From positions 1 to 38,639 of the IMG/VR virus record IMGVR_UViG_2778261594_000006: a stretch of 38,639 nucleotides of DNA. One strand, written 5' to 3'. Position numbers and translations under genes: made by a program. A model generated the notes under the pieces. The model did no database searches. It was given only the letters and a program-made list of their open reading frames with translations, and was not told the origin of the DNA. The stretch comes from a virus (lineage: Duplodnaviria; Heunggongvirae; Uroviricota; Caudoviricetes). Of the stretch, positions 8,190-36,721 are shown piece after piece (the stretch's first letter is position 1; every line of letters starts with the position of its first letter).

Positions 8190-8849
8190 TTAACTAAATG
8201 TCTCTTCAGGCCACTGGCTGGCGATAACTTTCCCTACTACGGAACAGCTATCATTGCATGGGATCATTGGATATTGCGGGTTTAGTGGTTGTAGGAACAC
8301 CTGACCGCTATCCCTGATCAGTTTCTTGAAGGTAAACTCGTCACCGCCAAGTCTGGCTATGCAGAAATCTCCTGGCTCAACAGCCTGCTCAGGGTCAACG
8401 AGAATTAACATTCCGTCAGGAAAGCTTGGCTTGGATCCTGTTGGTGCGGTCATGGAATTACCTTCAACTTCAAGCCAAAACGCACAATCACTGGCTTTTT
8501 TGGTTGTGCTGACCCATCTCTCCGCATCACCTTTGGTAAAGGTTCTAAGCTCAGGCGAGAACATCCCGGCCTGAACATGAGAAAAAACAGGGTACTCATA
8601 TTGTTTTTTAACGGGGGCAGATGAGTATTCGCCAGCAGGTGAAAATGTACCGTCGTGGTTGAATGAGACGTTATCAATACCAAGGTATTTAAACACCACA
8701 CCAATCTCGTCAAGAGATGGATGACGAGATCCGCGCAACCAGTGACCAATTCCACCCTGCGTCATACCAAGCTCTTCAGCTAACTTCTCTTGAGTTATGC
8801 CGAGCTCTTTCATTCTGGATCTAGCCAGTTCATACCATTTCATTTTCAT
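8190..8849 (-). CDS. cI: CI-type repressor (HTH domain + LexA-like S24 autocleavage domain)
   Basis: N-terminal HTH ([20 protein letters not shown]), C-terminal S24-type region ending ...[26 protein letters not shown] resembling P22 C2/lambda CI; divergent from cro. True start may be the ATG at 8843 (better RBS spacing). Confidence 0.85.
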
Positions 8850-9285: not shown

Positions 9286-9585
9286 ATGGAACAAACAAGT
9301 TACAGCAAACTATCACAGCGCGACGTTGATCGTGCAGAAACAGATTTACTTATCAACCTGTCAACGCTTACCCAGCGCGGTCTGGCAAAGATGATTGGCT
9401 GTCATGAATCGAAGATAAGCAGAACGGACTGGAGATTTATTGCTTCGGTTCTGTGTGCTTTCGGAATGGCATCAGACATCAGTCCGATTAGCAGGGCTTT
9501 TAAGTATGCGCTTGATGGACTCACCAATAAAAAACGCCCGGTGTGCAAGACCGAGCGTTCTGATCAAATACAAATGGAATTTTAA
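9286..9585 (+). CDS. cII: CII transcriptional activator
   Basis: 99-aa ORF; C-terminus LTNKKRPVCKTERSDQIQMEF closely matches lambda CII (ILTNKKRPAATERSEQIQMEF). Confidence 0.85.
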   Translation: MEQTSYSKLSQRDVDRAETDLLINLSTLTQRGLAKMIGCHESKISRTDWRFIASVLCAFGMASDISPISRAFKYALDGLTNKKRPVCKTERSDQIQMEF

Positions 9586-9607: not shown

Positions 9608-9880
9608 ATGCGAAACAAAGGCTTTAATCCACCTGATACACACAAAGAAGCTAAGCGTTTGCGCTTCCTTCGTTCCATTGATGAAAGAACTCAAATCTCT
9701 TTTGTGAAAGTTGCCAGAACTGAGCTTCTGAAGGCTGAGGCGAGGGCGTTGCTCCCGTCTCTACCAAAAGAGGAGGGATATACGTTCATTCCAAACGCAT
9801 TTCTGGAAAAGCTGCTCAAAGAAGACATATCCGTAAGTCAGTTTAACGATGTTCTTAAGGTCTTTCGTCAAGGCAGGTAG
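9608..9880 (+). CDS. Hypothetical protein (90 aa) between cII and the replication initiator
   Basis: ATG at 9608 with GAGG RBS; the track ORF's upstream part overlaps cII and is rejected. Confidence 0.5.
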   Translation: MRNKGFNPPDTHKEAKRLRFLRSIDERTQISFVKVARTELLKAEARALLPSLPKEEGYTFIPNAFLEKLLKEDISVSQFNDVLKVFRQGR

Positions 9881-9882
9881 TT

Positions 9883-10830
9883 ATGAGCAATACAGCAAAA
9901 ATCTACGATTTCAGCGCCGCACACGAGCGCAGGAGCAACAGGATGGAGAACCAGAAAACTGGTTACATTCCGTTGTACCGGAGCATTCTGAAACAGTCAT
10001 GGGCGAAAGATGTTTATCTTCGCACCCTGTGGGAAAACCTTCTCCTGAATGCCGCCAGAAAGCCATACAAAGCGAATTTCAAAGGTCATGAATGGCATCT
10101 GCAACCCGGTCAACTGGTTGTGACAGCAGCTGATTTAGGTCTTCAGTTATGCGACAGGCATGGCAAGCCAGCAAGCCGTGATCAGGTTGAGCGGATGCTT
10201 CAGGTTTTTGTGAAAGAGGGGATGATCTCCATTGATGGAGAGAAGCAAAAAGGTCGTGTGATAACCATCACAAATTACCATGAATATGCTCAAAAAATGG
10301 ACAATTTACCCGCACATGAAGCCGCACAAACAACCGCACATGATGCCGCACATGACGAAGCCAGTAATGGCGCGGCTTTCAGCGCACATGCCGCACATGA
10401 AAGCGCACATGAAGCCGCACAAACAACCGCACATCATGAACAAGAAGGTATTAACAAGAATATAAATAATACCCCCCTACCCCCCAATGGGGGAGGCGAT
10501 GGGCAGGTTAAACCTGAACGTCGCAAGGCAGAACGAATCGACTACGAATCCTTCCTGAACGCCTACAACACCGAAGTCGGTGACAGACTGCCACACGCTG
10601 TTGCGGTCAACGAGAAACGCAAACGCCGCCTGAAGAAAATTATCCCGCAACTGAAAACGCCAAACGTGGACGGTTTCAGAGCGTATGTCAGGGCGTTTGT
10701 GCATCAGGCCAAGCCGTTTTACTTCGGAGACAACGACACGGGCTGGACGGCTGATTTTGATTACCTGCTGAGGGAAGATTCGTTAACGGGAGTTCGGGAA
10801 GGGAAGTTTGCAGACAGGGGGATTGCATGA
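9883..10830 (+). CDS. Replication initiation protein (lambda O / P22 gene 18-like) containing the origin iterons
   Basis: N-terminus [10 protein letters not shown] resembles lambda O (MTNTAKILNF); internal DNA repeats and an AT-rich tract; followed by an ATGA-coupled helicase gene. Confidence 0.75.
10305..10470. repeat. Putative replication origin: about seven direct repeats of CGCACATGA (iterons) followed by an AT-rich tract, inside the O-like gene
   Basis: Copies at about 10311, 10335, 10346, 10382, 10392, 10403 and 10428, including a 27-bp duplicated block; AT-rich 10441-10470. Confidence 0.6.
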
Positions 10831-12203
10831 GACAGGATATCGAAGCGAGCGTTATCGGTGGCCTGCTGATTGGTGGATTAACTCCAACCGCCAGTGACGT
10901 TCTGGCAACGCTGGAGCCGGAAGCGTTTTCAATTCCGCTCTACCGGAAAGCCTTCGAGGTTATCCGCAAGCAGGCGCGAAACAGAAACCTAATCGATGCG
11001 CTGATGGTTGCCGAGGCGTGCGGAGAGGAGCATTTCACGTCAATCCTGATGACCAGCAAAAACTGCCCGAGTGCCGCAAACCTGAAGGGATATGCCGGAA
11101 TGGTCGCGGATAACTATCACCGCCGTCTGGTGCTGGAAATCATGGATGAAATGCGTGAACCAATTCAGAGCGGAACCATCGACGCATCGAGTCAGGCGAT
11201 GGATGAGCTTGTAAAGCGTCTTTCAGCCATCAGAAAGCCCCGTGACGAGGTTAAACCTGTACGGTTAGGGGAAATCATCACTGACTACACTGACACGCTT
11301 GACAGGCGTCTGAGGAACGGAGAAGAGTCAGATACCCTGAAGACCGGAATCGAAGAACTTGATGTCATCACCGGAGGGATGAACTCGGAAGACCTGGTGA
11401 TTATCGCTGCTCGTCCGGGTATGGGGAAAACCGAGCTGGCGCTGAAGATTGCCGAAGGCGTTGCAAGCCGCGTTATTCCTGGTTCTGACGTCCGGCGCGG
11501 AGTGTTGATTTTCTCGATGGAAATGAGCGCATTGCAGATTGCAGAGCGAAGCATTGCCAACGCCGGGAGGATGTCGGTTAGCGTGCTGCGAAATCCTGCT
11601 TCGATGGATGACGAAGGCTGGGCGCGCGTTGCTAATGGCATGAGTCAGCTTGCAGATTTGGATGTATGGGTAGTCGATGCCTCTCGGTTATCGGTCGAAG
11701 AAATACGCTCAATCGCAGAACGGCACAAACAGGAAAATCCAAACCTGTCACTCATCATGGTGGATTATCTTGGCCTGATTGAGAAGCCGAAAGCAGATCG
11801 CAACGACCTAGCAATTGCTCACATCTCCGGAAGCCTGAAGGCGATGGCGAAAGACCTGAAAACGCCTGTTATCTCCCTAAGTCAGCTTTCGCGAGATGTT
11901 GAGAAGCGACCAAACAAACGCCCGACAAACGCAGATTTGCGTGATTCAGGAAGCATTGAACAGGACGCAGACTCAATCATCATGCTCTATCGGGAAGCGG
12001 TATATGATGAGAACAGTAGCGCCGCGCCATTTGCTGAAATCATCGTGACGAAAAACCGTTTTGGCTCGCTTGGTACGGTTTACCAGCGGTTCTGTAACGG
12101 ACACTTTGTGGCATGTGACCAGGATGAAGCCAGACAGATTTGCACAACATCAAATGCACCTGCTGCGCGTGGCAGAAGATATGCACAAGGGGCTGACGTA
12201 TGA
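10827..12203 (+). CDS. Replicative DNA helicase (DnaB-like; P22 gene 12-type)
   Basis: 458-aa ORF with Walker A GMGKT, RecA-like core and DnaB-type N-terminal domain. Confidence 0.9.
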
Positions 12204-29986: not shown

Positions 29987-30679
29987 ATGTTATATGCATT
30001 TAAGCTGGGCAGAAAACTGCGCGGCGAGGAACCTTATTGCCCTGAAAAAGGCGGGAAAGGTGGCAGCTCTGATAAAAGCGCAAAGTATGCAGCAGAAGCT
30101 CAGAAGTATGCCGCAGACCTGCAAAATCAGCAGTGGCAGACGATCATGAAAAACCTTGCTCCGTTCACGCCTCTTGCGGAGCAGTATGTTAACCAGCTTC
30201 AGAACCTTTCCAGTCTAGAAGGTCAGGGGCAGGCACTTAATCAGTATTACAACTCTCAGCAGTATAAAGACCTTGCAGGTCAGGCTCGTTACCAGAGTCT
30301 TGCTGCTGCGGAGGCGACGGGTGGACTTGGTTCGACAGCCACAAGCAATCAACTGGCTACGATCGCGCCGACACTCGGTCAGTCTTGGTTATCAAACCAG
30401 ATGAGCAATTACAACAATCTGGCAAACGTTGGGCTTGGTGCGCTGCAAGGTCAGGCAAACGCCGGGCAGACGTACGCCAACAACATGAGCAGCATTGCAC
30501 AGCAAAGCGCAGCACTTGCCGCTGCTAATGCCAATAAACCATCAAGTCTTCAGACTGCAATTAGCGGTGGCACGTCTGGTGCGATTGCCGGTGCAGGTCT
30601 TGCCAGCCTTTTGGGAACATCAACGCCTTGGGGCGCTGGCATTGGTGCTGGTATCGGATTGCTTGGCTCGTTGTTTTAA
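29987..30679 (+). CDS. Ejection (internal head) protein, P22 gp7-like
   Basis: 230-aa ORF MLYAFKLGRKLRGEEPYCPEKGGKGG...; Gly/Ala-rich C-terminus. Confidence 0.75.
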   Translation: MLYAFKLGRKLRGEEPYCPEKGGKGGSSDKSAKYAAEAQKYAADLQNQQWQTIMKNLAPFTPLAEQYVNQLQNLSSLEGQGQALNQYYNSQQYKDLAGQARYQSLAAAEATGGLGSTATSNQLATIAPTLGQSWLSNQMSNYNNLANVGLGALQGQANAGQTYANNMSSIAQQSAALAAANANKPSSLQTAISGGTSGAIAGAGLASLLGTSTPWGAGIGAGIGLLGSLF

Positions 30680-34106: not shown

Positions 34107-34499
34107 TTAGCGGTTGATGGTTGCTTTTTTCGGGTCATACCATCTCGGCCATTCTTTCAGGAATGGGAATGAGTCGGGTGCGTGGTTCTTTTTGTACGAT
34201 TTAAGCAGCCTTAACCGCTCAATTGCACACTCATAAACCTCTTGTTGCCCTGTAGTCATCTCGGTCCATGAAAGGTGATCCATTGATAAGACAACGTTTT
34301 CAGCTTCTTTTATGAGGGCGTTTTTATTTCTCACCGCAGCAGCATGGCTGACAGAGCAATCCTGCCATATTCTTAAAAGCCAAATAGCTAAGCAGATGAA
34401 AAAAATGGTAGATAGCGATATATACACACCAACCTCTTTAGTTTTTCTAGTTACTTTGTCACGATAGGATATGCGAAATGATAAAACTAAATTGCGCAC
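34107..34499 (-). CDS. Single-TM membrane protein (130 aa), candidate superinfection-exclusion moron (sieA position)
   Basis: TM segment VYISLSTIFFICLAIWLLRIW; AT-rich; GTG start with weak RBS, so the start is uncertain. Confidence 0.45.
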   Translation of the reverse strand: MRNLVLSFRISYRDKVTRKTKEVGVYISLSTIFFICLAIWLLRIWQDCSVSHAAAVRNKNALIKEAENVVLSMDHLSWTEMTTGQQEVYECAIERLRLLKSYKKNHAPDSFPFLKEWPRWYDPKKATINR

Positions 34500-35791: not shown

Positions 35792-36721
35792 ATGAAAAGT
35801 ATAGCAACAGCAGTATCTACTATCAACGTGCCATTCCACGGCGCAGAGCTTTATGTCGTCAATCACAACGGTGAGCCGTACACCCCAATGAAACCTATCG
35901 TTGAAGGTATGGGTATGGATTGGGCTTCACAGTTTACGAAAATAAAGCAACGGTTTAAAACCTCCATTGTGAAAATCACAATGCAGCTTCCTGGTGATGA
36001 ACAGTGCCGTGAGATTATTTGTTTGGCACTTCGCAAACTTGCTGGCTGGCTGCAAACCATCAGCCCTAACAAAGTCCGCCCTGAAATCCGCGACAAGGTA
36101 ATCCAGTATCAGGAAGAGTGTGACGATGTGCTCTACGAGTACTGGACTAAAGGCCATGTAGTTAACCCACGCAAAGCTAAAAGGGCGTTGCCGGGTAAAA
36201 TCACCACTGAACAGCAGGAAGCCATTAAACAACTCGTCATGAGTCGCGGTCAGTCTCTGCCAAAAGAAAAACAGGCTAAGGCGATGATCACCATGTGGTC
36301 GTCACTGAAATCCCATTTTGGATGTTCGTACAAAGAAATCAGTGAGGAGCAGTTTACCGAAGCACTGTCACTTGCAGCTCGAGTTCCACTTGAAGGTGAG
36401 TTCATTGGCAAACAAGAGAAGAAAACCAACGAGCTTTCTGCAAAAGAAGCAAACAGCCTTGTATGGTTATGGGATTATGCTAACCGTTCACAGGCATTAT
36501 TCCGCGAACTGTATCCGGCATTAAAACAAATTCAATCGAACTATTCCGGCAGATGCTACGACTACGGTCATGAATTCTCGTATGTTATCGGAATGGCGAG
36601 AGACGTTTTAATCAATCACACACGAGATGTTGATATCAATGAGCCAGACGGACCAACGAATCTTTCCGCATGGATGAGACTTAAGAATAAAGAATTACCT
36701 CCTTCAGTACATAACTACTGA
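35792..36721 (+). CDS. ant: Antirepressor Ant
   Basis: 309-aa ORF downstream of arc in the immI arrangement; followed by a terminator. Confidence 0.7.

Follow-up and report, generated by a model that had tools for sequence, protein, structure and literature searches.

Two phased short-repeat arrays as a probable lambda-type replication origin within the initiator gene of a P22-like coliphage

The O-like replication initiator gene of a P22-like coliphage, analyzed here in a window of 38,639 nucleotides (nt) that spans positions 1 to 38,639 of IMG/VR record IMGVR_UViG_2778261594_000006 (Caudoviricetes), contains arrays of short direct repeats followed by an AT-rich tract. Comparative analysis leads us to propose that these repeats are very probably iterons bound by the initiator itself, and that they would belong to a lambda-type origin lying inside the initiator gene. 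The proposal is carried by the covariation of the repeat cores with the N-terminal domain (N-domain) of the initiator and by the conservation of the arrays at synonymous sites. The sample comprised 36 prophage loci of different species and 80 near-identical viral contigs, with 160 more viral loci included later, and the overall comparison covered about 170 related loci. An earlier note on this DNA, made from its letters alone, had called the gene O-like, an identification borne out by a match to Pfam PF04492, Phage_rep_O (residues 20-132, E 3e-15, 56.9 bits against a cut-off of 28.7) and by the gene order before a DnaB-type helicase gene. The gene and the elements of the proposed origin are as follows, in window coordinates.

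9883-10830, + strand: O-like replication initiator gene, 315 amino acids (aa); open reading frame (ORF) with a PF04492 match and 98-99% identity to annotated replication protein O genes
10310-10357, + strand: iteron array A, with cores CCGCACAT, CCGCACAA, CCGCACAT and CCGCACAT at 10310, 10322, 10334 and 10346
10358-10390, + strand: spacer of 33 base pairs (bp), AAGCCAGTAATGGCGCGGCTTTCAGCGCACATG, with its 5' ~20 bp conserved across subfamilies and an off-phase core copy at 10382
10391-10438, + strand: iteron array B, with cores CCGCACAT, GCGCACAT, CCGCACAA and CCGCACAT at 10391, 10403, 10415 and 10427
10439-10471, unstranded: AT-rich tract, presumed DNA-unwinding element, 18% GC, with AACAAGAA twice, 14 bp apart
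10472-10496, unstranded: G/C-rich inverted repeat CCCCCCTACCCCCCAATGGGGGAGG, whose arms pair in the DNA fold

The sequence CGCACATGA is present within 10311-10436 in five exact copies and two with one mismatch, which agrees with the "about seven" direct repeats of the earlier note, although the phased layout corrects that count to 4+4 units; the duplicated block, given there as 27 bp, is actually a 31-bp exact duplicate (CGCACATGAAGCCGCACAAACAACCGCACAT, at 10311 and 10404, offset by 93 bp). Elsewhere in the window a single further exact copy of CGCACATGA was found, at 34495, and the core CCGCACAW occurs eight times in the window, seven of them within 10310-10434, a count of eight that 0 of 100 shuffles reached. 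Tandem Repeats Finder reported period-12 arrays at 10310-10355 and 10391-10434, and the resulting register is four 12-bp units, a 33-bp spacer and four further 12-bp units, with both arrays in the same orientation and an 8-bp core, CCGCACAT/A. The units are asymmetric, and no inverted repeats were found in 10200-10600. The iterons occupy initiator codons 143-185, just 3' of the part encoding the N-domain, and the AT-rich tract that had been noticed after the repeats is indeed there, with a GC content of 18% against 47% for the window, which places it in the lowest 0.09% of 33-nt windows. The only other tandem repeats in the window are located at 30076-30117 and 36369-36403 (21 bp x 2 and 18 bp x 2, assigned in that order).

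The spacing of the arrays is strictly conserved among related initiator genes, as the earlier note would have it, but the number of units (3+3 or 4+4) and the number of arrays (one to four) vary. The distance from array to array equals 33+12n bp in 132 of 133 distinct loci (45, 57, 69, 81, 93, 105 or 117 bp, with a mode of 69 bp), and the spacer itself measures 33 bp in every allele examined, including that of phage L (ST64T-type), a distant relative. Its consensus, CCAGTAATGGCGCGGCT, carries 1.4-1.7 bits at codon third positions, as much information as at first and second positions, and the encoded residues vary. The 5' 20 bp, with the core CCAGTAATGGCGCGGCT, are kept across subfamilies that have unrelated iterons, phage L included, and L124 has such a spacer at 1684-1716; even so, no other stretch of the E. 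coli allele is as polymorphic as the spacer. No DnaA box, IHF consensus or GATC was seen in the spacer by eye, without a formal scan. The off-phase copy GCGCACATG at 10382 was considered as a fifth unit of array B and rejected, as it falls within the family-wide 33-bp spacer and is not a conserved unit, because most near-identical alleles have GCGTACATG at this place.

The sequences beyond array B are similarly shared, with GAACArGAA / AACAAGAA common to subfamilies with unrelated iterons and an equivalent G/C element present 3' of the AT-rich tract in HK97, P22 and the loci L004, L007, L033 and L041. In the lambda origin a palindrome lies to the right of the AT-rich tract, and by analogy with it we infer a corresponding role for the G/C-rich repeat of the window. 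Single-stranded folding of the AT-rich tract with the G/C-rich repeat was no better than that of shuffles (z -1.0), and a hairpin is not claimed on energetic grounds.

The repeat was found to be specific to the N-domain and to covary with it. In the AH-type family, to which the window belongs, two core variants occur that differ by one base, CCGCACAT (A-type) and CCGCGCAT (G-type), and the variant is uniform within each phage. Only two of 136 N-domain columns separate the two types, namely residue 82 (A/P versus S) and residue 100 (D versus H), and these residues tracked the A/G core without exception in 31 loci and then in 66 further ones; in the later separate set of 66 distinct AH-type loci, D100 accompanied A-type cores in 49/49 cases and H100 accompanied G-type cores in 17/17. 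The A/G core groups do not look like one simple clade. For example, L021 shares 98% with the A-type L003 over residues 17-78, yet has a G-type helix-turn-helix half and G-type iterons, and L023 has its nearest relatives among A-type proteins over its second half. In addition, distant subfamilies (43-54% identity) have 12-bp-phased cores of their own, CCGAT, AGGTAAC, GTCGAA or CGATACACC, each with its own recognition-helix signature. The signature-core pairs are SRD with CCGCACAT, SRH with CCGCGCAT, SPQAVT with CCGAT, SAKQVR with AGGTAAC, and SxKAVE with GTCGAA. In the AlphaFold2 model the N-domain (residues 30-137) has a per-residue confidence (pLDDT) of 70-89 and includes helices 82-88 and 99-111, followed by a beta hairpin (115-129); residues 82 and 100 stand at the N-termini of the two predicted helix-turn-helix helices. 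The linker (residues 138-216) has a pLDDT of 25-38, and the C-terminal domain (C-domain) is helical with moderate pLDDT. The domains of the initiator and its partner gene map as follows.

9940-10293, + strand: N-terminal winged-helix domain, residues 20-137, presumed reader of the iterons, with A82 and D100 linked to specificity (Pfam, AlphaFold2, column comparison)
10531-10812, + strand: C-terminal domain of the initiator, residues 217-310, presumed contact of the phage helicase (identity to the C-domains of HK97, Nil2 and SPN9CC; helical AlphaFold2 model)
10827-12203, + strand: DnaB-type replicative helicase gene (P22 gene 12 type), partner of the initiator (Pfam)

A tblastn comparison with phage records revealed that the protein splits at its linker. 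Over residues 190-315 it shares 97% identity with the O proteins of HK97, Nil2 and SPN9CC and 60% with P22 gp18, all of which have unrelated N-domains. Over residues 3-143 the matching proteins are instead initiators of Klebsiella and Yersinia phages, with 74-81% identity and a different C-domain. The initiator genes of these Klebsiella and Yersinia phages retain CCGCACAT units, spacer and AT-rich tract, and are followed by a lambda-P-type gene; since the CCGCACAT units are kept there and not in HK97 or P22, the repeats go with the N-domain, and the two modules meet within the AT-rich tract. Further natural chimeras have their joint at the same place, P0074 with a P22-type C-domain and P0079 with a phage-L-type C-domain. 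The C-domain type of the window co-occurs with a DnaB-type partner gene and lambda-like C-domains with a lambda P gene; in the window the initiator has no lambda-P-type loader, and a Phage_lambda_P gene is present in those relatives that share its N-domain and origin but have a lambda-like C-domain. On these comparisons the N-domain, iterons and AT-rich tract move as one recombination cassette, and the C-domains joined to it are exchangeable, each suited to its helicase or loader gene. One record of unexpected origin, L004 (OR850084.1, "Staphylococcus phage SA 1298 Kay", 2692 bp, flagged UNVERIFIED_ORG), encodes an enterobacterial lambdoid O-like initiator, 62% identical to that of the window and with an HK97-type C-domain, together with a DnaB-type helicase, and is probably a mislabelled or contaminant contig.

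The repeats translate in frame within the 315-aa ORF into the His/Ala-rich repetitive stretch that had been described earlier, and the claim that constraint at the DNA level shaped this linker is supported by the GCA/CAT codon bias and the conserved base before GCA in 33 homologues. These homologues, with N-domain identities of 65-87% and loci extracted by tblastn anchoring, served for all codon counts, and in 33/33 the linker consists of P-(AHxx)x3-4, an 11-aa spacer, and (AHxx)x3-4 ending in AHHEQE. The Ala codons of the units are GCA (151), GCG (41) and GCT (4), with no GCC, while elsewhere in the same 33 genes they are GCT (236), GCC (217), GCA (187) and GCG (136); for His, CAT and CAC number 176 and 5 in the units and 83 and 65 elsewhere. 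Accordingly, GCR makes up 98% in the core versus 42% elsewhere (Fisher p 8e-56) and CAT 97% versus 56% (Fisher p 3e-21), in homologues related by descent. A C precedes GCA in 207/214 units and the next base upstream is also C in 172/214, and the residue encoded just before GCA varies (A, P, S, T, G) despite the conserved dinucleotide. By comparison, fourfold-degenerate third positions at conserved residues of the N-domain are just 46% identical to the window, near synonymous saturation. Within one phage every unit bears the same synonymous variant, GCA or GCG.

Polymorphism among 64 haplotypes of the E. coli allele tends to spare the cores. Variation in the gene is greatest in the linker, whose nucleotide diversity (pi) is 0.038 against 0.007 for the N-domain; within the linker pi rises from 0.009 in the cores to 0.050 between them and 0.063 in the spacer, and the AT-rich tract and the adjacent G/C-rich repeat (10439-10500) are near-invariant, with a pi of 0.004. 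The peptide of residues 143-186 is rich in His and Ala because the reading frame reads the cores as GCA-CAT, and the His/Ala-rich stretch is very probably a by-product of selection on the DNA. As the linker is predicted to be disordered and tolerates residue changes, it can be described as a flexible linker whose sequence is dictated by DNA.

The arrangement is of a known kind, with one annotated short-repeat precedent, phage L, which is a distant allele. As in lambda, the putative origin is located inside the initiator gene just after the N-domain coding region, with repeats followed by an AT-rich tract and a palindrome; the iterons of lambda lie at about codons 116-144 of O, equivalent in position to those of the window. 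Both genes stand in the early-right operon after cII, both N-domains fall in Pfam Phage_rep_O, and in O, likewise, origin specificity resides in the N-domain, while contact with the helicase-delivery partner is made by the C-domain. The N-domain of lambda O binds its iterons, of which lambda has four and Stx phages six (PMC7466680), so that repeat number varies there as well. In contrast, lambda has dyad-symmetric 18-bp iterons, 20-24 bp apart and each bound by an O dimer (PMC7466680), whereas the eight 8-bp cores of the window are asymmetric and recur every 12 bp within two arrays, with a 33-bp spacer between them. The protein similarity between lambda O and the window initiator is marginal (E 0.005, N-terminus only), and the partner is P in lambda and a DnaB-type helicase in the window. 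The lambda-type arrangement proposed in the earlier note therefore stands as regards repeats and an AT-rich tract inside the gene after the N-domain part, but does not extend to dyad-symmetric iterons of 18-19 bp.

The lambda and P22 records annotate the origin within the homologous gene position, inside gene 18 (rep_origin) in P22. P22 gene 18 and HK97 O resemble the window initiator in the shared C-domain, in the DnaB-type helicase gene downstream, and in the junction of AT-rich tract and G/C repeat (TPLPPNGGG), which is identical; they differ in having four dyad-symmetric iterons of 18-20 bp spaced by 20, 24 and 23 bp, and tblastn found no N-domain similarity between the window initiator and P22 or HK97. 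A further close parallel is gene 18 of phage L (MW013503), with a putative rep_origin of "six imprecise 11-bp repeats" described as the likely origin (PMC8022706), a description without the two-array and spacer layout or the covariation. The two initiators are distant homologues (BLASTP, 22% identity over the full length, E 7e-10), and the features of phage L, two short-repeat arrays, a 33-bp spacer followed by an AT-rich tract, and a homologous initiator, were all found in the window. In both cases the arrays are co-oriented inside the initiator gene and a DnaB-like helicase gene comes next; phage L has 3+3 units of 11 bp (TGTCCAACGGA) with a different core, whereas the window has 4+4 units of 12 bp, and the spacers have the core CCAGTAATGnCGCGGCT in common (GCCAGTAATGGCGCGGCT in the window, ACCAGTAATGACGCGGCT in phage L). 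Plasmid origins of the RepA/RepE/pi type also combine co-oriented asymmetric repeats, a winged-helix initiator and an adjoining AT-rich unwinding element; their iterons, of ~19-22 bp at a spacing of ~22 bp, are read by Rep monomers with two winged helices and co-evolve with the initiator. The window resembles them in its asymmetric co-oriented repeats beside an AT-rich element and in iteron-initiator co-evolution, and differs in its 12-bp spacing and single Phage_rep_O domain; no Rep_3-type Pfam match was found on the initiator.

Alleles in the protein database differ by exactly 31 aa, i.e., 93 bp (P0045/L286-L288, P0001/L289 and P0011). Proteins of 284 aa have one array, those of 315 aa, by far the largest clusters, have two, and those of 346 aa have three; P0011, with four arrays, is listed at 357 aa from an internal start and would measure 377 aa from the start codon of the window. 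At the DNA level the long form is a 93-bp duplication, and the short form shows a precise deletion from one 31-bp copy to the other, with three array-B cores left beside the AT-rich tract; both occur in intact early regions. The 93-bp variants appear from their sequences to arise by recombination between the 31-bp exact repeats, and the L004-type subfamily has a like variation of one or two blocks (283 versus 306 aa). All 78 sampled viral contigs have two arrays and a linker of 144 nt, but this constant linker length applies to that sample only, as the protein database contains the 93-bp module variants. Two side cases, L010 (Xenorhabdus ehlersii), with an initiator ORF that ends early, at 174 aa, where relatives have the second array, and L041 (a Symbiopectobacterium metagenome-assembled genome), with a single three-unit array and an incomplete N-domain match, are probably degraded copies in decaying prophages.

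These variants bear on an alternative in which the initiator does bind the arrays but mainly for regulation, through titration, handcuffing or autoregulation, array A and the spacer serving copy control and array B with the AT-rich tract forming the minimal origin. The single-array alleles, which keep exactly three cores next to the AT-rich tract and occur in three different immunity contexts, would suit it, as would the equal size of the arrays (3+3 or 4+4) and the report that lambda in vitro needs only the two iterons nearest the AT-rich tract (cited in PMC7466680). On the other side, in 64/64 matching phage records a single location accounts for at least 80% of the two-array query, so that none appears to be single-array, and the 78/78 viral contigs agree; the sequence itself gives no distinction between a control and an assembly role. 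We regard this alternative as unlikely.

A less probable alternative still is that the repeats are functional DNA sites read by a host factor or another phage regulator, for example in the control of transcription or replication timing. The conservation of the 5' part of the spacer and of the GAACAAGAA element across subfamilies with unrelated cores would suit a factor common to all of them. However, this alternative would predict a single core common to all subfamilies, whereas the cores change with the N-domain subfamily and the one-base variant tracks two helix-turn-helix residues without exception. A promoter scan of 10150-10650 revealed no promoter-like site, and a single terminator-like match equalled chance expectation. 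Least probable of all, and largely refuted by the synonymous-site data, is that the repeats are merely a slippage-prone, low-complexity His/Ala-rich linker, metal-binding or flexible, in functionless DNA with the origin elsewhere or otherwise defined: the predicted disorder, the high polymorphism and the allele differences by whole 31-aa blocks would fit, but synonymous positions are fixed and uniform among the units of a phage, bases are kept even where the amino acid changes, little of the polymorphism falls in the 8-bp cores, and phage L has the same layout with 11-bp units, a length at which the repeats are therefore absent from the protein.

For the repeats as initiator-bound iterons, the following mechanism may be envisaged. 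The N-terminal winged-helix domain would read one core per domain, with the N-termini of the helix-turn-helix helices (residues 82 and 100) touching the fifth core position. The asymmetry of the cores, their common orientation and their spacing of only 12 bp make it probable that the N-domains are arranged head to tail on each array and do not bind as dimers to palindromes. The resulting nucleoprotein complex of initiator and arrays would destabilize the adjoining AT-rich tract, and the C-terminal domain could then recruit the phage's own DnaB-type helicase, which is encoded immediately downstream. A broader proposal, which we hold tentatively and consider possible though somewhat short of probable, is that enterobacterial lambdoid phages share a distinct, widespread and uncharacterized origin architecture, with two equal, co-oriented arrays of asymmetric 8-bp sites phased at 11-12 bp, a 33-bp spacer conserved throughout, head-to-tail assembly, a D100-A/H100-G code at core position 5, and a spacer that binds a shared factor or a conserved part of the initiator.

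Several points weigh against the iteron reading. The dyad-symmetric iterons of 18-19 bp, about two helical turns apart, that characterize the lambda, P22 and HK97 type are absent from the window, and since its units lack this symmetry, the lambda mode of one dimer per iteron is not simply transferable. The range of one to four arrays among natural alleles means that a need for the second array is not evident. Since the homologues share common descent, both the Fisher p values (1e-21 to 1e-56) and the covariation counts overstate the independence of the observations, although the codon contrast between units and the rest of the gene is large despite this kinship. The AlphaFold2 run, with an alignment of 20 sequences, had low overall confidence (mean pLDDT 60), and a Foldseek search of the model against the PDB gave weak generic winged-helix matches (CodY, ArsR/MarR, eS10/eS25), none at E <= 1e-3. 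A PDB sequence search with the initiator likewise found no match up to E = 1, so the fold assignment rests mainly on Pfam. Finally, no binding or initiation experiment on this allele or its close relatives was found in the literature.

The genomic setting is that of an early-right operon. The initiator gene comes after cI/cro/cII, with a cI-type repressor gene at 8190-8849 (- strand) and cII at 9286-9585, and directly precedes the helicase gene, whose start overlaps the initiator stop codon and whose product matches DnaB_C (E 1.5e-78) and the DnaB N-terminal domain (E 4.6e-13) in Pfam. Among P22-like coliphages, HF4s, CUS-3, Gally and JEP4 have "replication protein O" genes with 98-99% identity to the initiator gene, about 99% in the case of HF4s and CUS-3, and so do many Stx2a-converting phages; CUS-3 has the neighbouring genes in the same order. 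A 90-codon ORF (9608-9880) directly upstream of the initiator is unannotated in CUS-3; at its position in L286-L289 a 90-aa gene without a Pfam match is called. Two alternative-frame ORFs over the arrays, 10280-10465 (+) and 10306-10443 (-), of 61 and 45 aa, encode repetitive PHM/KPH and MCG/FMC peptides and are most likely repeat artefacts, not genes. The N-terminus of the initiator (residues 1-11, 9883-9915) is similar to the lambda O segment MTNTAKILNF, which is the ClpX recognition signal of O, and this likeness suggests, by analogy, that the window initiator may also be an unstable ClpXP substrate.

In the literature we found no description of this allele, the 4+4 form, the spacer conservation or the residue/base covariation; the papers that the motif CCGCACATGA matched in full text were all unrelated, and searches on CUS-3 and P22-like origins and on the early regions of Stx2a phages brought up no account of this origin. 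Among the matching records listed, none carries an origin annotation, and 48 of the 64 phage records sharing the module are Stx2a-converting phages of O157:H7. Toxin production by Stx2a phages correlates with the type of their early region, of which the o and p genes are part (PMC4645166, PMC9997748). The present analysis offers a candidate origin, defined by sequence, for a replication module found commonly among P22-like phages of E. coli, as well as a testable protein-DNA rule, in which D100/A82 would go with CCGCACAT and H100/S82 with CCGCGCAT. The natural variants with one to four arrays may serve as material for asking what role the distal array plays, and both the recognition rule and these variants are useful because no sequence relative of the initiator has a solved structure. 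In addition, the module would provide a clean case of overlapping codes, in which an array of binding sites sets the sequence of a disordered protein linker.

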